Under the pieces are notes generated by a model. That model had not been told where the DNA came from, did no database searches, and worked only from the letters and a program-made list of their open reading frames with translations. DNA of 20,000 bases from an uncultured virus (IMG/VR IMGVR_UViG_3300017763_003721) (taxonomy: Duplodnaviria; Heunggongvirae; Uroviricota; Caudoviricetes): the IMG/VR virus record IMGVR_UViG_3300017763_003721. One strand, 5' to 3'. Shown here piece after piece: positions 2,718 through 16,377 of the stretch. Position 1 is the first letter of the stretch, and the number at the start of each line of letters is the position of its first letter. A program made the position numbers and the translations under genes.

Positions 2718-3555
2718 AAAATATATTCCAGGCGAAACCAAAGCACAACGGAAGGCGAGGAAAAATGCTAGCAAGGGTATAACTCCAAGTGCCAACGCAC
2801 CTCAGTCCGAAGCTCGAAAGCCTGAAATATATAATGAACCAGATCCTAATAAAAAATACTATGTAGTTTGTTTAAAATGGGGAGACAAATACGGCCCTGA
2901 ATATGTAAACAAACTATATCATATGGTTCAGCGTAATTTAACTATCAATCATGAATTTATTTGCTTTACTGAACAACCAGCTAATCTAGTTCCAGGTATT
3001 CGAGTAATAGATTTAGAACTAATGCCTGGAATAGAAGGATGGTGGTACAAGCCCATGTTCTTTAATCCTAATTTAGGATTAGACGGTGTTGTATTGTTTC
3101 TCGATCTTGATATGATAATTTTTAAAAACATTAATAAACTATTTTCATACAAGCCAAACGAATTTATAATCATACAAGACTTTAATAGGCATGTTGTACG
3201 CAATTATGATAAATTTAATTCTAGTATTTTTAGACTAAACACTGGACAACATGCTCAAGTCTATCATGATTATATGGCAGATAAAAATAATATCAGTAGA
3301 AGGTTCCAAGGAGATCAAGATTGGATACGGCATTCAATAAAAGATGAATATAATTATTGGCCTGTAGATTGGATACAAAGTTATAAATGGGAAATGAGAG
3401 GAAAGCCTCAAATGACTGGAGGTCCAAGAGGTACTAGGGATTTTGTAACTAAAGGAGAACCTGCTCTCCTAGATGAAACATCTATTGCTGTCTTTCACGG
3501 AGATCCTAATCCACATTATTGTAAAGACGACTGGGTTCAAAGAAACTGGAAATAG
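2710..3555 (+). CDS. Glycosyltransferase, GT-A fold (GT8-like), with basic N-terminal extension
   Basis: VVCLKWGDKYGPEYVNKL, GWWYK, DxD motif (FLDLD), FNSS, GDQDWI and FHGDPNPH. Overlaps queD by 8 nt. Confidence 0.8.
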   Translation: MAKKYIPGETKAQRKARKNASKGITPSANAPQSEARKPEIYNEPDPNKKYYVVCLKWGDKYGPEYVNKLYHMVQRNLTINHEFICFTEQPANLVPGIRVIDLELMPGIEGWWYKPMFFNPNLGLDGVVLFLDLDMIIFKNINKLFSYKPNEFIIIQDFNRHVVRNYDKFNSSIFRLNTGQHAQVYHDYMADKNNISRRFQGDQDWIRHSIKDEYNYWPVDWIQSYKWEMRGKPQMTGGPRGTRDFVTKGEPALLDETSIAVFHGDPNPHYCKDDWVQRNWK

Positions 3556-3558
3556 TGG

Positions 3559-3587
3559 TTGACAACGATAAATAGGTGTGTTATAGT
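3559..3587 (+). promoter_or_regulatory. sigma70-type promoter (extended -10) for leader/tRNA operon, with nested late-type GATAAATA
   Basis: TTGACA 3559-3564, 17 bp spacer, TG-n-TATAGT (3582-3587). GATAAATA lies at 3567-3574 inside the spacer. Confidence 0.85.
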
Positions 3588-3612
3588 AAATACACAATAA
3601 GGAATTAGAGTA

Positions 3613-3678
3613 ATGAAGAACACAAGACAAATAATATCTAATATATGGTGCCCACCTTTTGGGAGGGGTTTGTTTTGA
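3613..3678 (+). CDS. Attenuator leader peptide, 21 aa (MKNTRQIISNIWCPPFGRGLF)
   Basis: SD TAAGGA at 3598-3603, ATG at 3613, TGA at 3676-3678. Codons 11-14 are ATA TGG TGC CCA, cognate to the four downstream tRNAs. The 3' end overlaps the antiterminator strand. Confidence 0.8.
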   Translation: MKNTRQIISNIWCPPFGRGLF

Positions 3679-3713
3679 TGTGATTTATTTACATTAAGTT
3701 TTAAACAAGCCCC
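3665..3713 (+). promoter_or_regulatory. Antiterminator helix (2:3) of attenuator
   Basis: GGGGTTTGTTT (3665-3675) pairs over 11 bp (one G-U) with AAACAAGCCCC (3703-3713), which includes the terminator 5' arm. Confidence 0.78.
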
Positions 3714-3737
3714 AAGCGAAAGCAAGGGGCTTTTTTT
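3707..3737 (+). terminator. Rho-independent terminator (attenuator 3:4 hairpin) immediately upstream of tRNA array
   Basis: AAGCCCC-AA-GC-GAAA-GC-AA-GGGGCTT followed by T-run (T7 at 3731-3737); ends 2 nt before tRNA-Trp. Confidence 0.88.
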
Positions 3738-3739
3738 AT

Positions 3740-3813
3740 GGGTGTGAAGTGTTACGGTAGCACGGCGGTCTCCAAAACCGTAAGCTGGGGTTCGACTCCC
3801 TACACGCCCGCCA
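3740..3813 (+). tRNA. trnW: tRNA-Trp (CCA)
   Basis: Acceptor GGGTGTG/CACGCCC, anticodon arm GCGGT-CT CCA AA-ACCGT (anticodon 3772-3774), TTCGA T-loop, G73 and encoded CCA. Confidence 0.93.
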
Positions 3814-3890
3814 CGGAGCATAGCACAGCTTGGTAGTGCGCCTGGTTTGGGACCAGGAGGTCGTAGGTTCGAATCCTACTGCTCCGACCA
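3814..3890 (+). tRNA. trnP: tRNA-Pro (TGG)
   Basis: Acceptor CGGAGCA/TGCTCCG, anticodon arm CCTGG-TT TGG GA-CCAGG (anticodon 3848-3850), A73 and encoded CCA. Confidence 0.96.
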
Positions 3891-3897
3891 ATTTTAC

Positions 3898-3974
3898 GGG
3901 CTCTTAGCTTAGTTGGTTAAAGCTGTCCGCTCATAACGGATCGATCGTTGGTTCGAATCCAACAGGGCCCACCA
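3898..3974 (+). tRNA. trnI: tRNA-CAT, most likely tRNA-Ile2 (lysidine-modified, reads AUA)
   Basis: Acceptor GGGCTCT/AGGGCCC with C4:G69, anticodon arm GTCCG-CT CAT AA-CGGAT (anticodon 3932-3934), A73 and CCA. Lacks initiator hallmarks (C1:A72 mismatch, three G:C pairs in the anticodon stem). Overall sequence resembles bacterial Ile2 rather than elongator Met. Confidence 0.85.
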
Positions 3975-3975
3975 G

Positions 3976-4049
3976 GAGGGTATGGCAGAATGGCTATGCA
4001 TCGGATTGCAAATCCGCTTATCTCGGTTCGACTCCGGGTACCCTCTCCA
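3976..4049 (+). tRNA. trnC: tRNA-Cys (GCA)
   Basis: Acceptor GAGGGTA/TACCCTC, anticodon arm TCGGA-TT GCA AA-TCCGC (anticodon 4008-4010), U73 discriminator typical of Cys, encoded CCA. Confidence 0.94.
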
Positions 4050-4058
4050 AGTTATTAG

Positions 4059-4087
4059 TTGACATATGAAACAATAGATAGTATAAT
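4059..4087 (+). promoter_or_regulatory. sigma70-type promoter for 2OG-Fe(II) oxygenase
   Basis: TTGACA 4059-4064, 17 bp spacer, TATAAT 4082-4087: perfect consensus. Confidence 0.85.
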
Positions 4088-7578: not shown

Positions 7579-10500
7579 ATGGCAAAGCAAAATGTAGACA
7601 TTGGTGTAGAAGGTAATGACGGCACTGGTGATAGTATTAGAGAATCGTTTCGTAAGGTAAACGAAAACTTTACTGAACTGTATGCTGTATTTGGTATTGG
7701 TGGACAAATATCTTTTACAGATCTAAGTGATACACCGTCAACATATCAAGGTAACGAAAATAAAGTGCCTGCCGTTGCTGGTGATGGCAGTGGTATGAAT
7801 TTGTTACAACTTGCTTCTAATAATGCATTAGATGGTACTATTGATACTATTGGTTTTGATTACAGTGTAAGTGGAAAACTTATTATTAGACAACTTGTAT
7901 CCAAAGTGTCTAATGACCCAATACCTGTATTAGGTGGACCGTTAGATGCGGCAACTCAGCCAATTGCAAACGTAGCAGTAACGCAAGCAGCTATTGATAC
8001 ATTTAATGCTGTACACAATACACAGTATACAGTTTCAGACTTAGTTATTAACAAAGCGTATGCTGACAGCAATTATCAAACTAAAGACGTGCCAGGTGGC
8101 GGAATTAGATTAGCAGATGAGCCTAGTGATGCTTCAGCTTATACAATTACCATTACTAGTCTAAACTTAGGCAACATGATAGTTAATAATCATGGATTGC
8201 CTGGTTCATATACTGGTTCTCCTTTTGTTTGGACTTCAACTGGTACTGATCCTACAAATGTTACTACCGGTCAGCAATATTTTATAAGAGTTATAGATGC
8301 TAATACACTAAGCTTCCATTCTACATCAACAGGCGCAATTGCTGGAACTGGTAGACTATTAATGTCAGGTGGTTCAGGAACGTTTACTATTAGAGATGCT
8401 GCTTATGATTCTTCACTTAGTGGTAATTGGTTAAACAATGTAGCACTTCCTAGAAAATCAGTAGTACGTAGACAAGGTGATACAATGACAGGTGCTTTAA
8501 ACTTGTTTGATCATCCAGGCGAACTTTCAGGTAAAGGTACACCATATGGTCCAGATGACTTACAAGCAGTATCAAAACTATATGTAGACAATGTTGCGGC
8601 TACTAGTGATGTAAACATATTTGTTACTATGAAAGGTGATGACACACAACGCTTTACTCCAGATGGAAAGCAAGGTCGTGCAATTGGATATGCATACAAA
8701 ACTATAAATGCTGCATCAAGAAAAGCTGAAGAAATAATTATTTCGGCACCGCCTGAGCCAGGTCCGTATATGCAGACACTGACTTACAACACAGGTGTTA
8801 ATTTATCAACAATTAATACAGCAGGTATTACTTCACCAATTAGCGGTCGAACAAATGCTAGAACACTTATTATAAACAACAAAGAATTTGTTGCTAAAGA
8901 AGTTACAGCATACATGAATGCAACATATCCAGATCATGTAGGTGATTATAATGAAGAAGATTTTGAAAAGCGTATTGAAGAAATACTTGATAGTGTTTCT
9001 TTAGATTCTTTGTTAGGAAACAACGCAAACTTCTTATCTAGATATGCAGGTTTAACTTACTATGCAAGCGTTGAAGGCCAAACACTCATTGGTACACAAA
9101 AAACAGAAACAGTTGCAGGTATTACCTATGCTAAAAATATTGTTAAAAATTATATTTTAACAAACACAGCAGTACCAACAAGTTATCAAACACAAGTTAC
9201 ACAATTTATAAACGGTTCAATCACTCCAGATGCGACTGCTGACGATGCTATCGATGCAAAGTTTCAAATTGTATTAGATGTAATTAATAATGGAGCATTG
9301 AATGCTCCGCAAATTGTTGATGGTACAACGACCTATAAGATTAATGCAAACAATGGTAACTTTGGTTTCTTAGATCAAGCTAATCCAAACAACACAGATG
9401 TTATTCCTGGTAAAGTTATAAGAGGTAAAACATCTGGTGCTATCGGACTGATGGTAGATTATAAACACGAGTCTGGATCACGAGCAGTAAGTATTGCTAC
9501 TACAGACGAAATTGAACTACAATTATTAAAACCAATTGAATTTATACCAGGTGAAGAATTAGAATACGGTAACGTACAAAATGAAACACAGGTTGTAATT
9601 GTTGTTGAGTCAGGCATTTATGACGAAGACTTTCCAATTAAAGTTCCAAACAACGTTTCTATTAGAGGTGACGAGCAACGTAGAGTTATTGTAAGACCTA
9701 AGAATAGAATATCTCAATCAAGATACGCTGATACGTATTTCTATAGAGACGCTGAATTTGATGGTATGGTTCTAGGTGTTTCAGAAATAAACACACTTAG
9801 ATTTGAAACTCAAATTAATTCATCTAGAACAGCAGGAACCTACACTGTAACTAGTGCTAATATGACTACAAGCAATATTGGCACTGGAGCAACTTTAACA
9901 ATTATAATTGATAGTAATGGTGCAGTAACATCTGCAACTCCTACAGTAAAAGGTAAAAACTTTGTTAAAGAAGAATTAATTACTATTGAAGACTCTCAGT
10001 TAGGTAGTGGCGGCGCACCCGCAATTAATATTACTGTTGATACTATTCTTAATGGTGACGTGTATAAAAACCCGCTCACAGGAACATTTGATGGATACTT
10101 TGGTTATCACTATTTAGAAAAACCAGGAAGTTTAAAAAATATAGGCGCTGGTTACACTAACGTAGGAAACTGGGAAACATCGGCACTTACATTTATTGAC
10201 AACAAAGAATTTATTCAAGAACAGGTCGTAAACTATATTGAAACGACATATCCTTCATTGCCAGCAGGAGCAGTATATTCTAGGGCAAAATGGTTCGGTT
10301 GGACTGGACAAATAGTTGATGCTATTATAAAAGATTTAAGATTAGGTGGTAATGAATTTGTTTTGCAAGAGCAAGGCGACATTTACCAAGAAGGTTTAAC
10401 TAGTCCAAATCTAATTAGCAGTGTACATGACGAATGGGTAGCAGGTGTTGCACACATATACACAATGGCAAACAAATTGCTACAAGGACAAGCACCTAGT

Positions 10501-13500
10501 ACATTATACAACCAATCGGGCGGGACTGCAAGTGATAGAGTATATGCACAAGATTTAACTAATGGTGATTCTGCTCCAGCTACTTGGACTACAGGTAAAT
10601 TATACAAATTGCAAGATGTAGTTAAATTTACATCAGCAGGTGTTATAAGATATTATGTTCCAAAACTGCAACATACTTCTGGTGTTACATTTGATGCAAC
10701 AGAAATTGCAACATATTGGACTGAAATAGATACAATAGATACTACTATACTTAATTTTATAAACTCTGTAAACTTTGCATTTAATACATCTTACAATCCA
10801 CCTAAGCACAATAGAGATCAAGACGTATTTTTATTAAACGATGCTACTATTCTACGTAATATGACTGTGCAAGGTCATGGTGGATTTATGGGTGTGCTTG
10901 ATCCAGATGGACAAATACTTACTAAATCACCGTACATACAAACAGGATCTAGTTTTGCTGCAAGTTTAAACAAGCAAGCATTTAGAGGCGGACTATATAC
11001 AGATGCATTTGTAGGTAACTCAGCTATTCAAGTTACTGGCAGAGTAAGTAATGATCCTTTTACTCTAAATATTAAAAGTTTAGGATCACAATCACAACCA
11101 CAAGGGTTGTTTGTAAGAAAACCGCAAACTCCTTGTGCGTTTTACATTGATGGCAGAAGATTCCAAGTTAACGCAATTACAAATTATGATAAATCATTAG
11201 GAACAGCTATCCTTGTACTAGACAGAAGTTCAAATAGCGGTACAGGATTTACAGGCACTACTAGTGAACTTATTACAGGATTTAATCTTACACAAGTAGG
11301 AACATTTCAATTTGAAGTTGCTAAATGCGAAAGAGATACAGGTTATATTTTAGACGCTGTACAGTTTGATTTAGCACTTGGCACAAATTATAACGCGGTA
11401 ACAAACGGATTAGCATATCAACGTAACGTTGTAAGTACATACTTACAATCAAATCAAAAAGCACAAACTATTGCAGCTATCCAAGTTACTAAAGCTAAAA
11501 CTGCCGCACTATCAAGTGTTGCAGGTGACGCAACAGCATTATCAAGATCAAATGCTGCTTTCGATGAAATTATTGATATACTTGACAATGGTGCATTAGG
11601 AACTGAAACTGCTGCAGATACAATTACTTTCTCAGCACCGAGTGCATTACCTTACGCTAAGTCAGTAGAAGCACGTACAAAGCTACAAGAAAATAGAACA
11701 TTTTTAGGTGCAGAAGCAGTAGCATTTATTAATCTTAATAGTCCAGCACCAGGATATGATGAAGTTAAATGTGCTAGAGATGTAAGATTTATTATTGATG
11801 CTATTACTTACGATATCAACTACGGTGGTAATACTGCATCAAGACAAGCCGCACGTTCATATATTGATGATGGTGTAGCTGTATTAGCAGCAGCTGAAGT
11901 TACTCCAACAGTTAATGCAATGAATCATATTAAAGGATTATTGTCAGATATTGTAAACGGCGTAAGTTTTACTAAATCAACAGGCAACGCAGAAACACAG
12001 GTAACAGCAGGCTTAACAGCTGATGCTACTACAGCAACACAATTAGGTGTGTTGATTGATATTATAATCAATGTAATTCAAGCATCAAACTTAAACAGTG
12101 TACCAGCAATTGTTAAACCATCGATTACATGGGCAACAGCAGGACTACAAGCTGCACATGGTGCAATTGACACTAACAGAGCATTAATTATTAGGCAAAC
12201 TGTGCAAAGTGTTGCATCGCCGATCGACATTACACTACAAACAGCTGGTAACAGAAGTATGTTAGGTAATGACTTTACACAAATTAACGACTTGGGCTAT
12301 GGTCTAGTTGCTGTAAACGGTGGCATATCAGAAATGGTATCTATGTTTACATACTACTGTCATGTAAGTTACTATTCTAAAAACGGTTCTCAAATTAGAT
12401 CTTTAACAGGGTCTAGTTGTTACGGCGAATTTGGATTAGTTGCTGAAGGATCAGATCCAAACGAAATTCCAGACGCTGTATCTCTAGCAGAAGATATGGT
12501 TATGCCGGGCAAGATATTCTCAGCTTCAGTTATATTACAAACTACAGGACCTGTAGTTGGCGTAGCCGGCGAAACATTTACACAAGCATCAACAGGTGCA
12601 ACAGGTGTAGTTGTTATATCAACAGGTGCTAACGGTAATAGTCAAATTTATTTACGAGATACTACAGGAAGTTTCGACACAACAAACACAATTACAGGAA
12701 GCACCACAGGCGCATTAGGTGCTAACAGTGTACCCCTTTCAGTTGATGCAACAGGTTACACAAACGCAGCAGCTACAGCTTATATGTATGTGTATGATAT
12801 GAAAGATGTACCGTCAAACAGATCAGAATTTGATATCTATCATACTAATGCATCACCAAATGCTGTACTAGGAAGATACGAAGTAAGCAATGTAGAATTA
12901 GCTACTCCGCACCTGGGTGCATTTAATGGAGTAGGTGTAGGTGGCACACCGCCCATTACAGCAACACAGACCGTTGCAGAAGCTGGAGCTACTGGTGCAA
13001 GATTCCAAGTACGCAAAACAAAAACTGATGGATATACTGTTGTAATTAAAACACCAGGTACAGATTATAGAGAAAATGATACATTCTTAGTTACAGGTGA
13101 TAAGCTAGGCGGAGCAACTCCTGCAAACGATGCTACTATTACAGTAACACAAGTTGATGCGGGAGATAGTACTCCAAGCACAGGTGCAATAACAGGCGCA
13201 AGTATCTCGGGTACAGCTCTTACTACAACAGATGACACGCCAACTTACAGTGGAGCAGTTTATAAATTAAACTTCTCAACATCATCTGCACAATATGCAC
13301 AAAACGGTATTGTTGCATCTCCAACGCACAACGATCTTATAAACTATAGACGCAACGAAACACATATATTTAATGACTTAGCACAGCCAGATTTACTTAC
13401 TATTAGACCAAGTACTGCGGTATTGTTTAATGAGAATCCAGGAAACTTTTATAGATCAATATCATTTTTAACTAGCAACAGTTTAGGTACAACATTAGGT

Positions 13501-16377
13501 GCTAATAGTATCCAAGCAGGATTTGATAGTGGGTATGATTATATTAGATTAACTATCGATAATACTAGAGCAGCGGAAACAGCATTAAGCGGCACTGGAA
13601 CTACTAAAGGTGCAACAGCAGGTGATGTTAGACTAGCACTTCAAGCAGTAGCAGATGCTAACGAGAAATTTAGACTTAACAATAATGCAAGGACACCTGA
13701 AGCATACAGACCAGTAGGTTGGTCAACTTCGACGTTAACTGAAGCTCCAATTATTTCTTGGAAAGGTAAGAAACATTATGTTTACAACTATAGAGGTGTA
13801 ACAGGCGGAGGCGCAGAACAAGTATCAGCTTCAGATGATGTTTACGCTATTGTTGATCTAGCTGAAGTAGGAGAAACAATTAACTCTACTAATGCAACAG
13901 GTATACATGGCACAGTTGTATTGTCAGGGTTAACTAACACTATTAGAGCAGGTTTACAAGCAGGAGCAACAGGTACAGTTACAGTTAACATTTCAACTTG
14001 TAGAGCTACAGGACATGATTTCCTAGATATAGGTACAGGCGGCTTTAATGCATCAAACTATCCAAACTTTATATTTGGACCTCCTGGAGAGAAGAGTGAA
14101 GCTAATGAAGTTGTAGAAAAGAACAAAGGTAGAGTATTCTTTGTAAGTACAGATCAAAATGGTATTTTCAAGGTTGGTAAATTCTTCCAAGTTGACCAAG
14201 GTACTGGTACAGTTACATTTAGTGCAAGTATTGCACTTAGCGATGTTGACGGACTAGGATTTAAACGTGGTGTTGTTATTACTGAATTCTCAACAGATAC
14301 AGCAATGACAGATAATGCTTCAGACACAGTGCCAACCGAAGGTGCTGTACGGGGATATGTAAACAGACGTTTAGGATATGATGTTAATGGTACAGCAGTA
14401 AGTAACAAACTAGGACCAGGCGTACTTGCACCAAATGGTGTTGTACCAATGACGGGTGATTTAAATGCTGCAAGTAATACAATTACAAACTTAAAAGCAC
14501 CGGCACAAGATAGTGATGCTGCAACAAAGGTATATGTTGATAATATTGCTGGTTCTACATCAGTAGAAGATCTAAGAAGTTCTGAATACAATGACTATGC
14601 TTTAGGTAACTTGTTTGTTGCTACAGGCGAAAAGAAACTTATTATAAATGCAGGATCGATTGTAAGTGGACCGTTTGTACAAGGACAAACTATAAGTGGT
14701 AACAACAGTGGCGCCACAGGTACTATTGTTGACTTGAAAACTACAGTAGGTGTTGAAGGTAATGTTATTGAAATAACATACACTCCTGTTACAGGAACAT
14801 TCCAAGACGGATTGCCTGCAGGTAGCGGCGAATCACAAGATGTAGTAAGTGTTGTAGGTGGTGCTCAAGGTACCCTTGTAAAAGGCCCAATTGATGTTTG
14901 GGCAAATGGTATAACAACAGCAAATAGTGATATATCATTTACTCCATCCAGAAATAGAACAATTGTAGGCGGTGTTGTAACTGACAGACATGTAGACCTA
15001 GATGTTCAAATCAAAGTAGGCACTATTGTAAACGCAGATGTCAACGGTGCAGCGCAAATATCACAAAGTAAACTAGCAATGAATTCTGCTAGTACAAGAA
15101 TAAATGCAACAAATATAAGTCAAGCAGACTTGGGCGTTGTTGCTTTTGATAGCGATGTGTTTACTACAACAAATGGTTGGACTACAATATCAGATGGACA
15201 ACTTGATCTTAAGAAAATCAAACGTGTAAGTGACGGCACTGTGCTAGGTAACTGGAGTGGCGACAGCAGTGACAATGACATTGATGAAATATCATTTGCT
15301 ACAGTAGTTTCAGAAGGCGGCGGAATAGGTGATGCTGATTTGACTACAACAATAGCAGTAGGATCAGATCCAGGTGAAGCTGTAATTAAAACAGGCACAG
15401 GAACTTATGCTGTATCAAACGTTACTAAGACAGGTGAAGTAAACAGTATTATTAAAAGTGATCTAAACGGCAGTATACAAGTAAACTCATTAATACTTGG
15501 CGGTGATTCATCATACGAAATATTAGCACTAGATACTACGACAGTTATAATGAAAACACCTGCACAAGGTGAAATACTTAGATCCACAGGTACTACAGGT
15601 GTTAGTGCAAATGGTAAACCAGATTTATTAATTGCAGGTAGTGTTAATATAGACGGAACAGGTGTTGCAGAAAGTGTACTACAAGATGCTTCAAACTTTA
15701 ACGGTGAAGCAGTACTAGGTGTTGACTGGATCTACTCTAGCTTTATTGAAGCACCAGGCGAAAAAGGTGCAGCAAGTACAGCTATAGCAATTGGTGCTAA
15801 TACTGGTAAAACAGCGGCAGGACAAATAGGTATTGTGACAGCGGATAGTGCTACAACATCAAGTGTTGTACCATTTATCTTTAGCAGTAGCGGAGCAGTG
15901 CCAGATGTAACAAATGCATACGATATTGGTAGCTCAACATTTAAATACAAAGACATATATGCTACAACATTCTATGGTACTGCAACCGAAGCTTACTATG
16001 CTGACTTAGCAGAGAATTACTTAGCAGATAGTTTGTATGAGCCAGGCACTGTACTAGTTTTTGGTGGCGAAGAAGAAATTACAACAACAGAGATTAAAGG
16101 CGATAGAAAAGTTGCTGGTATTGTATCTACTAATCCAGCACACTTAATGAACTCAGCATTGTCAGGATTAAATGTTACTGCACTAGCACTACAAGGAAGA
16201 GTGCCTTGTAAAGTAATTGGCAAAGTTGAAAAGGGCGACTTGTTAGTTACTAGTGCAATCGCAGGCTATGCAATTGTTAATAATGATCCTAGTGTAGGTA
16301 CTGTAATTGGTAAGGCTGTAGGATCTAAACAAGATGGTGATCGTGGTATAGTTGAAATTGTGGTAGGTAAACACTAA
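7579..16377 (+). CDS. Giant tail fibre/spike-like virion protein (2932 aa)
   Basis: N-terminal T4 gp9/gp10-like motif (KQNVDIG..NDGTGDSIRESFRKVNENFTELY). Pectin-lyase-like beta-helix segments (SGIYDEDFPIKVPNNVSIRGD; SPYIQ; GNDFTQIND). Helical KCxRD repeats. C-terminal peptidase G2 / intramolecular chaperone-like domain (YADLAE...GIVSTNP...ALQGRVPCKV). Confidence 0.85.
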   Translation: MAKQNVDIGVEGNDGTGDSIRESFRKVNENFTELYAVFGIGGQISFTDLSDTPSTYQGNENKVPAVAGDGSGMNLLQLASNNALDGTIDTIGFDYSVSGKLIIRQLVSKVSNDPIPVLGGPLDAATQPIANVAVTQAAIDTFNAVHNTQYTVSDLVINKAYADSNYQTKDVPGGGIRLADEPSDASAYTITITSLNLGNMIVNNHGLPGSYTGSPFVWTSTGTDPTNVTTGQQYFIRVIDANTLSFHSTSTGAIAGTGRLLMSGGSGTFTIRDAAYDSSLSGNWLNNVALPRKSVVRRQGDTMTGALNLFDHPGELSGKGTPYGPDDLQAVSKLYVDNVAATSDVNIFVTMKGDDTQRFTPDGKQGRAIGYAYKTINAASRKAEEIIISAPPEPGPYMQTLTYNTGVNLSTINTAGITSPISGRTNARTLIINNKEFVAKEVTAYMNATYPDHVGDYNEEDFEKRIEEILDSVSLDSLLGNNANFLSRYAGLTYYASVEGQTLIGTQKTETVAGITYAKNIVKNYILTNTAVPTSYQTQVTQFINGSITPDATADDAIDAKFQIVLDVINNGALNAPQIVDGTTTYKINANNGNFGFLDQANPNNTDVIPGKVIRGKTSGAIGLMVDYKHESGSRAVSIATTDEIELQLLKPIEFIPGEELEYGNVQNETQVVIVVESGIYDEDFPIKVPNNVSIRGDEQRRVIVRPKNRISQSRYADTYFYRDAEFDGMVLGVSEINTLRFETQINSSRTAGTYTVTSANMTTSNIGTGATLTIIIDSNGAVTSATPTVKGKNFVKEELITIEDSQLGSGGAPAINITVDTILNGDVYKNPLTGTFDGYFGYHYLEKPGSLKNIGAGYTNVGNWETSALTFIDNKEFIQEQVVNYIETTYPSLPAGAVYSRAKWFGWTGQIVDAIIKDLRLGGNEFVLQEQGDIYQEGLTSPNLISSVHDEWVAGVAHIYTMANKLLQGQAPSTLYNQSGGTASDRVYAQDLTNGDSAPATWTTGKLYKLQDVVKFTSAGVIRYYVPKLQHTSGVTFDATEIATYWTEIDTIDTTILNFINSVNFAFNTSYNPPKHNRDQDVFLLNDATILRNMTVQGHGGFMGVLDPDGQILTKSPYIQTGSSFAASLNKQAFRGGLYTDAFVGNSAIQVTGRVSNDPFTLNIKSLGSQSQPQGLFVRKPQTPCAFYIDGRRFQVNAITNYDKSLGTAILVLDRSSNSGTGFTGTTSELITGFNLTQVGTFQFEVAKCERDTGYILDAVQFDLALGTNYNAVTNGLAYQRNVVSTYLQSNQKAQTIAAIQVTKAKTAALSSVAGDATALSRSNAAFDEIIDILDNGALGTETAADTITFSAPSALPYAKSVEARTKLQENRTFLGAEAVAFINLNSPAPGYDEVKCARDVRFIIDAITYDINYGGNTASRQAARSYIDDGVAVLAAAEVTPTVNAMNHIKGLLSDIVNGVSFTKSTGNAETQVTAGLTADATTATQLGVLIDIIINVIQASNLNSVPAIVKPSITWATAGLQAAHGAIDTNRALIIRQTVQSVASPIDITLQTAGNRSMLGNDFTQINDLGYGLVAVNGGISEMVSMFTYYCHVSYYSKNGSQIRSLTGSSCYGEFGLVAEGSDPNEIPDAVSLAEDMVMPGKIFSASVILQTTGPVVGVAGETFTQASTGATGVVVISTGANGNSQIYLRDTTGSFDTTNTITGSTTGALGANSVPLSVDATGYTNAAATAYMYVYDMKDVPSNRSEFDIYHTNASPNAVLGRYEVSNVELATPHLGAFNGVGVGGTPPITATQTVAEAGATGARFQVRKTKTDGYTVVIKTPGTDYRENDTFLVTGDKLGGATPANDATITVTQVDAGDSTPSTGAITGASISGTALTTTDDTPTYSGAVYKLNFSTSSAQYAQNGIVASPTHNDLINYRRNETHIFNDLAQPDLLTIRPSTAVLFNENPGNFYRSISFLTSNSLGTTLGANSIQAGFDSGYDYIRLTIDNTRAAETALSGTGTTKGATAGDVRLALQAVADANEKFRLNNNARTPEAYRPVGWSTSTLTEAPIISWKGKKHYVYNYRGVTGGGAEQVSASDDVYAIVDLAEVGETINSTNATGIHGTVVLSGLTNTIRAGLQAGATGTVTVNISTCRATGHDFLDIGTGGFNASNYPNFIFGPPGEKSEANEVVEKNKGRVFFVSTDQNGIFKVGKFFQVDQGTGTVTFSASIALSDVDGLGFKRGVVITEFSTDTAMTDNASDTVPTEGAVRGYVNRRLGYDVNGTAVSNKLGPGVLAPNGVVPMTGDLNAASNTITNLKAPAQDSDAATKVYVDNIAGSTSVEDLRSSEYNDYALGNLFVATGEKKLIINAGSIVSGPFVQGQTISGNNSGATGTIVDLKTTVGVEGNVIEITYTPVTGTFQDGLPAGSGESQDVVSVVGGAQGTLVKGPIDVWANGITTANSDISFTPSRNRTIVGGVVTDRHVDLDVQIKVGTIVNADVNGAAQISQSKLAMNSASTRINATNISQADLGVVAFDSDVFTTTNGWTTISDGQLDLKKIKRVSDGTVLGNWSGDSSDNDIDEISFATVVSEGGGIGDADLTTTIAVGSDPGEAVIKTGTGTYAVSNVTKTGEVNSIIKSDLNGSIQVNSLILGGDSSYEILALDTTTVIMKTPAQGEILRSTGTTGVSANGKPDLLIAGSVNIDGTGVAESVLQDASNFNGEAVLGVDWIYSSFIEAPGEKGAASTAIAIGANTGKTAAGQIGIVTADSATTSSVVPFIFSSSGAVPDVTNAYDIGSSTFKYKDIYATTFYGTATEAYYADLAENYLADSLYEPGTVLVFGGEEEITTTEIKGDRKVAGIVSTNPAHLMNSALSGLNVTALALQGRVPCKVIGKVEKGDLLVTSAIAGYAIVNNDPSVGTVIGKAVGSKQDGDRGIVEIVVGKH

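Follow-up and report, generated by a model that had tools for sequence, protein, structure and literature searches.

A probable leader-peptide transcription attenuator in front of a tRNA operon in marine phage DNA

Introduction

How are tRNA genes expressed when they begin directly behind a transcription terminator? The question is raised by a 20,000-nucleotide (nt) stretch of DNA from an uncultured virus of the Caudoviricetes (IMG/VR record IMGVR_UViG_3300017763_003721), hereafter the window, in which four tRNA genes lie on the plus strand behind a short open reading frame (ORF) and an intrinsic terminator. The first gene, tRNA-Trp (anticodon CCA, 3740–3813), begins immediately after the U-tract of the terminator, and is followed by tRNA-Pro (UGG, 3814–3890), by a tRNA with anticodon CAT (3898–3974) that ARAGORN labels Met and that is probably a tRNA-Ile2 reading ATA, and by tRNA-Cys (GCA, 3976–4049), the last gene of the unit. 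Because a promoter scan of the window found no promoter between the terminator hairpin and the tRNA genes, these can be transcribed only by readthrough of the hairpin. Based on the modelling presented here, we consider it likely that the element is a ribosome-mediated (leader-peptide) transcription attenuator, which would gate the phage tRNA operon by feedback from tRNA supply.

Leader-peptide attenuation is textbook knowledge for amino-acid operons. If our interpretation is correct, this would be the first case of attenuation in which the regulated product is itself the molecule that is sensed. It would also explain how a phage doses its own tRNAs, which bears on the debate about why phages carry tRNAs.

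Architecture of the leader region

The leader and the tRNAs are driven by a sigma-70-type promoter (TTGACA-17 nt-TATAGT with a TG extension, 3559–3587, on the plus strand, as for all features of the unit) that matches the consensus at 11 of 12 positions. A Shine-Dalgarno-like AAGGAA motif (3599–3604) is located 8 nt 5' of the ATG of a 21-codon leader ORF (3613–3678), which encodes the peptide MKNTRQIISNIWCPPFGRGLF and ends with TGA at 3676–3678. Two groups of control codons are found in this frame, ATA ATA (3631–3636) and ATA TGG TGC CCA CCT (3643–3657), all of which are decoded by the four tRNAs behind the leader; the run ATA-TGG-TGC-CCA-CCT corresponds to tRNA(CAT), tRNA-Trp, tRNA-Cys and tRNA-Pro behind the terminator.

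The terminator (3707–3739) is composed of a stem (3707–3713/3726–3732) with a GC-GAAA-GC cap and a stretch of seven U residues at 3733–3739. An earlier note on this DNA had proposed that the last leader codons can pair with, and thereby sequester, the 5' arm of this stem, and all of its coordinates, including those of the control codons (3643–3657) and the stop codon, proved correct. In this 2:3 helix, residues 3665–3675 (GGGGTTTGTTT) pair with 3703–3713 (AAACAAGCCCC) over 11 bp, ten of them Watson–Crick pairs and one a G·U pair (T3669·G3709). The overlap with the terminator is provided by AAGCCCC at 3707–3713, which also pairs with GGGGCTT at 3726–3732. The antiterminator extends inward by a further 8 pairs (3676–3683/3689–3696), such that a 19-bp hairpin spanning 3665–3713 is formed, with a computed energy of −21.6 kcal/mol in the window compared with −15.3 kcal/mol for the terminator.

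The switching strand, segment 2 (3661–3683), has either segment 1 or segment 3 as its partner. In the minimum free energy (MFE) fold of the full-length RNA, segment 2 is held by a 13-bp helix with segment 1 (3620–3632, paired with 3668–3681), the 5' strand of an anti-antiterminator, and the terminator is formed. This helix is the main protector of segment 2 and was absent from the earlier note, which had assigned the protecting role to weak pairing between the Pro codons CCCACC (3651–3656) and the G run at 3661–3667. The latter pairing does occur in the MFE fold, as five pairs (3651–3653/3665–3667 and 3655–3656/3661–3662), but only as a side arm. A small hairpin within the ORF (3635–3650), in which 3635–3638 pairs with 3647–3650, contains the Trp codon and the codon preceding it.

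When the upstream leader (3613–3699) is paired with segment 3 (3700–3713), the best duplex has an energy of −16.1 kcal/mol and falls at the 3665–3675 site; it is equalled by one of 2000 dinucleotide shuffles (mean −7.9, standard deviation 2.0). The whole leader folds with a z-score of −4.18, and none of 200 shuffles folds equally well. For the full-length RNA, the terminator state amounts to −39.6 kcal/mol and the forced antiterminator state to −36.5 kcal/mol. A translatable leader with ribosome-binding site and shared promoter, control codons, a terminator, a 2:3 helix and a 1:2 helix, i.e., the components of leader-peptide attenuators, are all present at this locus.

A family of related leaders

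A search with a segment-2 pattern identified 100 viral loci, of which 88 carry downstream tRNA genes, 11 are unrelated matches in coding sequence, and one has a leader with too little sequence downstream. The first tRNA is tRNA-Trp in 87 of the 88 tRNA-bearing loci. With a segment-1 pattern, 62 loci were obtained, 60 of them family members, and a metagenome scan using a pattern that leaves the 5' half of segment 2 free contributed 120 further loci. Pooling gave 256 family members, all from viral or metagenome contigs, whose leaders encode 102 different peptides.

At 74 of the 75 unique sites an ORF of 14–24 codons ends at segment 2, the remaining site being cut by the contig end, and a Trp codon is present in all 74 leader ORFs. 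The leader is accompanied by a Shine-Dalgarno-like motif in 68 of 74 unique relatives, and a promoter with at least 10 of 12 consensus matches is located upstream of the leader in 66 of 72. tRNA-Trp is the first tRNA at 74 of 75 unique sites, and in 88 of 89 complete clusters in the larger set. Segment 2 is nearly invariant in the relatives anchored on segment 1, where 58 of 60 have at most one mismatch to the fixed positions of the pattern. This near-invariance fits a strand that codes and pairs in two ways, and leaves little variation to test.

None of the 120 segment-2-pattern matches in bacterial and archaeal genomes is a member of the family (26 of 64 parts scanned). In the cultured-phage collection the leader of the window gave tRNA matches only and the leader of locus L200 gave none, and no cultured close relative or host was found in this collection.

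Other search anchors were tried and rejected. Synteny via the upstream glycosyltransferase-like gene led to a single tRNA cluster among 80 related loci, which shows that the neighbourhood is not conserved; the cluster in question (L002) has the order Trp-Tyr-Pro-CAT-Cys and a leader that reads ...F-Y-I-W-C-P.... The exact 17-mer of the control codons returned one identical copy (L082) and one chance match in GC-rich coding DNA (L083), and a pattern for the tRNA-Trp anticodon arm was too generic (116 loci, with L176 as the one family member).

Conservation of the alternative structures

RNAalifold applied to a MAFFT alignment recovered only the terminator and scraps of other helices, which were misplaced by gaps, and instead the 72 unique leaders were folded one by one and the pairs mapped to alignment columns. 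Full-length folding yields the terminator in 70 of 72 leaders, the 1:2 helix between segments 1 and 2 in 56–61, and the CCNCC:GGGG side arm in about 53 (91.6% of cells paired). When the RNA of segments 2 and 3 is folded in isolation, GGGG:CCCC antiterminator pairing is observed in 68 of 72.

Covariation is significant for the terminator state, defined as the 1:2 helix, the ORF-internal hairpin, the side arm and the terminator. In this structure 90.8% of cells are paired and 11 pairs, with 100 cells, are changed on both sides, which is reached by none of 500 shuffles. Taken separately, only one pair is changed on both sides in the 1:2 helix, and likewise only one in the CCNCC:GGGG arm. The terminator alone, for which 123 distinct sequences were available, has 93.7% of cells paired and 73 cells changed on both sides (0 of 500 shuffles). 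As for the ORF-internal hairpin, four of six pairs are changed on both sides in the family, for example from CAACA/TGTTG to CAATT/AATTG as a Cys codon becomes Asn; when the sensing codon changes, the opposite strand of this hairpin follows. Candidate roles for the hairpin are pausing, or holding segments 1 and 2 together.

In the antiterminator, 89.8% of cells are paired among the 72 sequences and 90.9% among the 123 distinct ones, compared with 39–59% when the partners are slid against each other. In the larger set the paired-cell share is reached by one of 500 shuffles, a measure that can arise without structure. The claim of the earlier note that the 2:3 and 3:4 helices are mutually exclusive is borne out, in that both helices exist, exceed chance expectation in the window and are kept in the relatives.

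Ribosome position and the choice of hairpin

The geometry was evaluated for the 72 relatives with a model in which a ribosome covers A−15 to A+12 relative to its A site, no pairs are formed across it, and the RNA is cut before the 3' arm of the terminator. With the A site at positions W−4 to W, where W is the Trp codon, the antiterminator forms in 69–71 of 72. The number falls to 41 at W+1 and 15 at W+2, and is 0 at W+3 and beyond as well as at the stop codon. The decision boundary of the modelled ribosome lies, accordingly, immediately 3' of the Trp codon. The stalling geometry put forward in the earlier note is reproduced by this model, since a ribosome at or before the Trp codon leaves the antiterminator free and one at the stop codon blocks it. 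At the family median the antiterminator and terminator hairpins are iso-energetic (−19.7 kcal/mol each).

Correspondence between leader codons and tRNA genes

Cognate codons were counted in a sensing window of W−5 to W+2, and compared with permutations in which the clusters are shuffled among the leaders. The 56 unique complete leader–cluster pairs contain 87 non-Trp tRNA species, and a matching codon exists for 80 of these (permutation 52.0±3.0, 0 of 10000). With the metagenome included there are 89 pairs, in which 116 of 128 are matched; the permutations average 78.5±3.4 with a maximum of 91, and none of 10000 reaches 116. Whenever a tRNA-Pro gene is present, so is a Pro codon (41/41), and the same applies to Cys (39/39), Ile-ATA (15/15), Tyr (5/5), Gly (3/3), Gln (3/3) and His (1/1), and nearly so to Ser(TGA) (7/8).

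The Ile codons are particularly informative. In the larger set, ATA codons and tRNAs with anticodon CAT or TAT are distributed as 15/0/5/69 (both, tRNA only, codon only, neither; p = 4e-13). The leaders that precede a CAT or TAT tRNA contain two to three ATA codons in 12 of 12 cases, and in none of the 12 is ATT or ATC found in the sensing window. Such a tRNA is missing behind 44 leaders, of which 38 lack ATA and 31 contain ATT or ATC. Because ATA and ATT/ATC are synonymous, the switch places the relation at the level of the codon and not of the amino acid, and it is the strongest single point in favour of a link between codons and tRNAs. For the CAT tRNA considered separately, the corresponding counts are 8/0/9/39 with ATA codons and 0/8/0/48 with ATG codons. 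Database labels for the CAT tRNA vary, with 30 tRNA-Met, 2 tRNA-Ile and the rest other or none among the 60 matches listed.

Closely related leaders that differ in gene content provide further examples. In such pairs, TGC is replaced by TAC with loss of tRNA-Cys, CAT by TAT with no tRNA-His in the 660 nt available, TGT by GGT with a swap of a Cys for a Gly tRNA, and AAT by GGT with tRNA-Gly gained. Independence of the changes was assessed on a tree built without the sensing codons, on which the presence of a tRNA changes at least 14 times for Cys, 12 for Pro, 7 for Ile, 4 for Tyr and 3 for Gly. On supported branches, about ten independent pairs change in the same direction and none in the opposite direction, in seven tRNA types. 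For Ser(tga), a few opposite independent pairings are found among those listed.

Transcripts across the terminator

Contigs from marine RNA libraries of two studies cross the terminator into tRNA-Trp, one covering 3628–3778 (X3) and the other 3615–3814 (X5), with 0 differences each. These libraries are available as contigs, from which RNA starts, ends and levels cannot be read and in which uncovered parts carry no meaning. The contigs fit readthrough precursors.

Proposed mechanism

On the basis of what was established here by computation, namely the components, the competing helices with their conservation, terminator-state covariation, the ribosome geometry and the match of codons to tRNAs, we propose the following mechanism. 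Transcription would start at the 3559–3587 promoter, and the 21-codon leader would be translated at once. As long as charged tRNAs for ATA, TGG, TGC and CCN are plentiful, the ribosome would reach the TGA at 3676–3678 and cover segment 2, the terminator (3707–3732 with its seven U residues) would form, and transcription would end 1 nt before tRNA-Trp. If one of these tRNAs were scarce, the ribosome would wait at 3643–3654 and part segment 1 from segment 2. The freed segment 2 would then pair with 3689–3713 once this is transcribed, sequestering the 5' arm of the terminator, and RNA polymerase would continue into tRNA-Trp, tRNA-Pro, tRNA(CAT), probably Ile2, and tRNA-Cys. The output would restore exactly those tRNAs that were sensed as short, which amounts to a supply loop with negative feedback. 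We infer that ribosomes do stall at the control codons and that both termination and readthrough do occur, with tRNA rather than amino-acid supply as the signal.

At the level of the family, a wider reading is somewhat favoured, i.e., that the element is a programmable homeostat of tRNA supply in marine phages, with leader codons that are edited to fit whichever tRNA genes follow the terminator. The codon beside Trp would then change with gene content (Cys to Gly, Asn to Gly, His to Tyr, ATT to ATA), with the ORF-internal hairpin compensating, and the time that the ribosome spends waiting at each codon would directly determine how much is transcribed of the tRNA for which it waits. If the attenuator model holds, the element would constitute a small natural sensor that reports how available individual tRNAs are, and the family would be a natural experiment in the co-evolution of regulatory codons and gene content. 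The context would also allow CAT-anticodon tRNAs to be assigned to Ile2.

Comparison with known systems

In the trp attenuator, RNA polymerase reads through when the ribosome stalls upstream of segment 2 and terminates when the ribosome is at the stop codon, and the choice is kinetic. The present element resembles E. coli-type trpL (Trp_leader, RF00513) in having a short translated leader with a Trp codon, alternative 1:2, 2:3 and 3:4 helices, and a terminator followed by a U-tract, and also in that the terminator state is, overall, at least as stable as the antiterminator. It differs from trpL in being phage-encoded, in regulating tRNA genes instead of Trp biosynthetic enzymes, and in having a single Trp codon, with codons for other amino acids on either side. 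The two are unrelated in sequence, as the Trp_leader model scores 13.0 bits against a gathering threshold of 41. The Thr_leader and Phe_leader models also remain below threshold (17.5 against 55 and 14.9 against 55), and in the window no non-tRNA family of Rfam 15 reaches its gathering threshold, which only tRNA models pass.

The multivalent ilv leaders combine control codons for several amino acids, and shortage of each raises readthrough. Mixed control codons in one leader are a shared feature with the present element. In contrast, the ilv, Thr, Phe, His and Leu leaders contain many repeated control codons and have biosynthetic enzymes as targets, whereas the present family has single or double codons for up to about six tRNAs, which match the genes behind the terminator.

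The pheST attenuator (with the pheM leader) and T-box leaders regulate the translation machinery by the state of a specific tRNA. The likeness to the present element is that the target is a component of the translation machinery and the proposed response is to the state of a specific tRNA. Unlike here, the pheST target is a synthetase and not the tRNA itself, and in T-box leaders the RNA itself binds the uncharged tRNA, with no ribosome involved. No T-box was detected at the gathering threshold in the window, or at E-values up to 10 in 3540–3760. Classical attenuators regulate genes for biosynthesis or for aminoacyl-tRNA synthetases, and here the targets are four tRNAs. In our model, the element would represent the classical attenuator design with the sensed tRNA itself as output, differing from known members in its target and in Rfam similarity. 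Leader-peptide control of tRNA genes or of phage tRNA clusters was not found in a full-text literature search, in which subscription journals were poorly represented.

Weighing the interpretation

A number of results, gathered here with the alternatives to which some of them belong, weigh against the attenuator as proposed. On the side of the codons, 12 of 128 tRNAs are unmatched, namely Ser(GCT) (0/4 matched), Arg (0/5), Ala (0/1), one Ser(TGA) and one tRNA-Glu (TTC). In the independent-pair test no single tRNA type attains p < 0.05, with few supported pairs per type. The sensing position has a single Trp codon, whereas classical attenuators have tandem control codons, and in some leaders another TGG falls within segment 2, at which stalling would favour termination. 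The Pro codons CCNCC double as the pairing strand for GGGG, and their conservation may be structural. The identification of the CAT tRNA as a probable ATA-reading tRNA-Ile2 has the codon association as its sole basis. As for the RNA, segment 2 is partly fixed by the search patterns, and the RNA contigs could be carried-over DNA. A simple terminator scan does not list the 3707–3739 hairpin because its 12-nt apical part exceeds the loop limit of the scan.

The energetics also constrain the model. In full-length RNA at equilibrium the terminator wins in 65–71 of 72 relatives at every ribosome position, and this ribosome-masked folding rules out a purely thermodynamic switch. A co-transcriptional switch remains, and since equilibrium favours the terminator it must be kinetic, as in classical attenuators. 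Conversely, truncated RNA without a ribosome prefers the antiterminator in 63 of 72 relatives (in the window −28.1 vs −24.4 kcal/mol), so that termination of untranslated leaders is not assured. The suggestion in the earlier note that protection of segment 2 gives termination when the leader is untranslated does not hold at equilibrium, and can stand only as a kinetic effect.

The alternative that survives best, which we nevertheless judge unlikely, retains the attenuator and changes its signal. Here the leader would be a general sensor of translation stress or amino-acid supply, responding to uncharged tRNA at the Trp codon or to slow formation of the Pro-Pro bond in the Trp-Pro-Pro motif (dependence on EF-P), and readthrough would raise tRNA output under starvation or stress independently of the operon's own tRNA levels. 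A stalled ribosome cannot distinguish a missing from an uncharged tRNA, and the most conserved feature of the peptide is a W with P or PP behind it. Moreover, the converse of the codon match fails, as 42 leaders have Pro codons but no tRNA-Pro in the cluster, and 31 have Cys codons but no tRNA-Cys. What such a sensor does not account for is the switch of Ile codons between ATA and ATT/ATC with the presence of the ATA-reading tRNA, or the appearance of Gly, His, Gln, Tyr and Ser(TGA) codons beside W when the tRNAs for them are present, in a total match that no permutation equals. In most members, moreover, part of GGGG is already covered once the A site has reached the second Pro codon, and given that the antiterminator forms in only 15 of 72 at W+2, a Pro-Pro stall is poorly placed for antitermination.

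Still more doubtful is a non-regulatory, leaky terminator of a small early gene or RNA, which would set a fixed low level of tRNA transcription or act as an insulator, the alternative pairing being a by-product of G- and C-runs needed for other helices. GGGG pairs with CCNCC and CCCC pairs with the GGGG of the terminator, and complementarity between GGGG and CCCC then becomes automatic. The preference for the terminator at all ribosome positions in equilibrium folding is in line with this alternative, and so is the covariation of the 2:3 helix. The earlier note had looked to covariation in homologous leaders as a check on this helix, and the outcome is not significant, with the score reached by 355, 123 and 182 of 500 shuffles. 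Variation in the antiterminator is almost wholly one-sided (G-C to G·U, A-U to G·U), and the score for covariation is the same as the mean of the shuffles. Outside GGGG:CCCC there are seven pairs, six of which also lie beyond the terminator stem; they are nevertheless 83.6% paired, compared with 39–56% when slid, and a continuous hairpin is closed even in lineages that differ in inner sequence (the type of the window and L292, the main type and the TACGTT type). The case for the antiterminator is built on this conserved complementarity, the statistics in the window, the differing inner helices of the lineages and the geometry, and not on covariation. A leaky terminator would further leave unexplained why the decision boundary of the modelled ribosome falls right after the Trp codon, as well as the codon–tRNA match and the synonymous ATA switch. 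It also disagrees with the poor conservation of the peptide (102 variants), while frame, start, stop and RNA strands are kept.

That the terminated leader transcript of about 145 nt, or the peptide, has a function of its own, e.g., as a trans-acting small RNA, with the tRNA link being secondary, is very improbable: the leader has a strong promoter of its own and a stable fold, and attenuator-derived small RNAs, including a trans-acting attenuator RNA in Sinorhizobium, are reported (PMC6614838, PMC7968998), but no data point to a target, the peptide is not conserved, and with the element fused to tRNA-Trp (88/89) such a function could at most supplement the attenuator, not replace it.

Variants in the family and genomic setting

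Some members of the attenuator family deviate from the arrangement in the window. At 61 of 151 unique family sites, an insert of 80–95 nt is located between the terminator U-tract and tRNA-Trp (e.g., L204 225–316, L205, L318 and L345); the window itself does not contain it. The insert folds into a cloverleaf-like four-way junction with a 10-bp closing stem and three hairpins, one of them with a TCGAAAG loop, at about −25 kcal/mol. ARAGORN calls no tRNA in the insert, and no Rfam match at the gathering threshold was obtained in the four loci scanned (L204, L205, L318 and L345). In L318, a manA RNA motif (RF01745, 868–1078, 58 bits against a gathering threshold of 55.2) ends about 25 nt 5' of the start codon of the leader, so that a marine structured RNA of a known kind immediately precedes the attenuator there.

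In L233 (1–1418), the leader and terminator (about 1043–1177) lie within a tRNA array, with at least nine tRNAs upstream and Trp and Pro downstream, an arrangement in which the attenuator would gate only part of the tRNA set of the phage. The leader frame extends by 15 nt to a TAA within the inner hairpin in L340 and L347, and ends in L346 with a TAG just before GGGG; judged from their sequences, a terminating ribosome would still cover segment 2 in all three. L258, with the leader MIKTNTLQFWCSPTPRGMS, is the sole family site where ARAGORN places tRNA-Cys first. A tRNA-sized gap of about 78 nt separates the terminator from tRNA-Cys in this locus, and may contain a divergent or decayed tRNA-Trp.

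The window derives from a 30.5-kb viral record that is rated 8% complete, which hints at a very large genome. Neighbouring genes have PHROG matches to QueD-like proteins, a glycosyltransferase, a 2OG-Fe(II) oxygenase and an endonuclease family. For the last of these, relatives in cultured phages are annotated as UV-damage endonuclease, and identity to jumbo-phage proteins is at most 47%. An ORF of 2932 amino acids at 7579–16377 has tail-fibre-like PHROG matches. The attenuator and tRNA unit is situated between the end of the glycosyltransferase-like gene (3555) and the next promoter (4059). Two sigma-70 promoters that match the consensus at 12 of 12 positions (TTGACA-17-TATAAT) are found in the flanking region, at 2182–2210 and 4059–4087, where they precede the QueD-like gene and the 2OG-Fe(II) oxygenase gene, and the phage seems to rely on such strong host-type promoters for this gene block.

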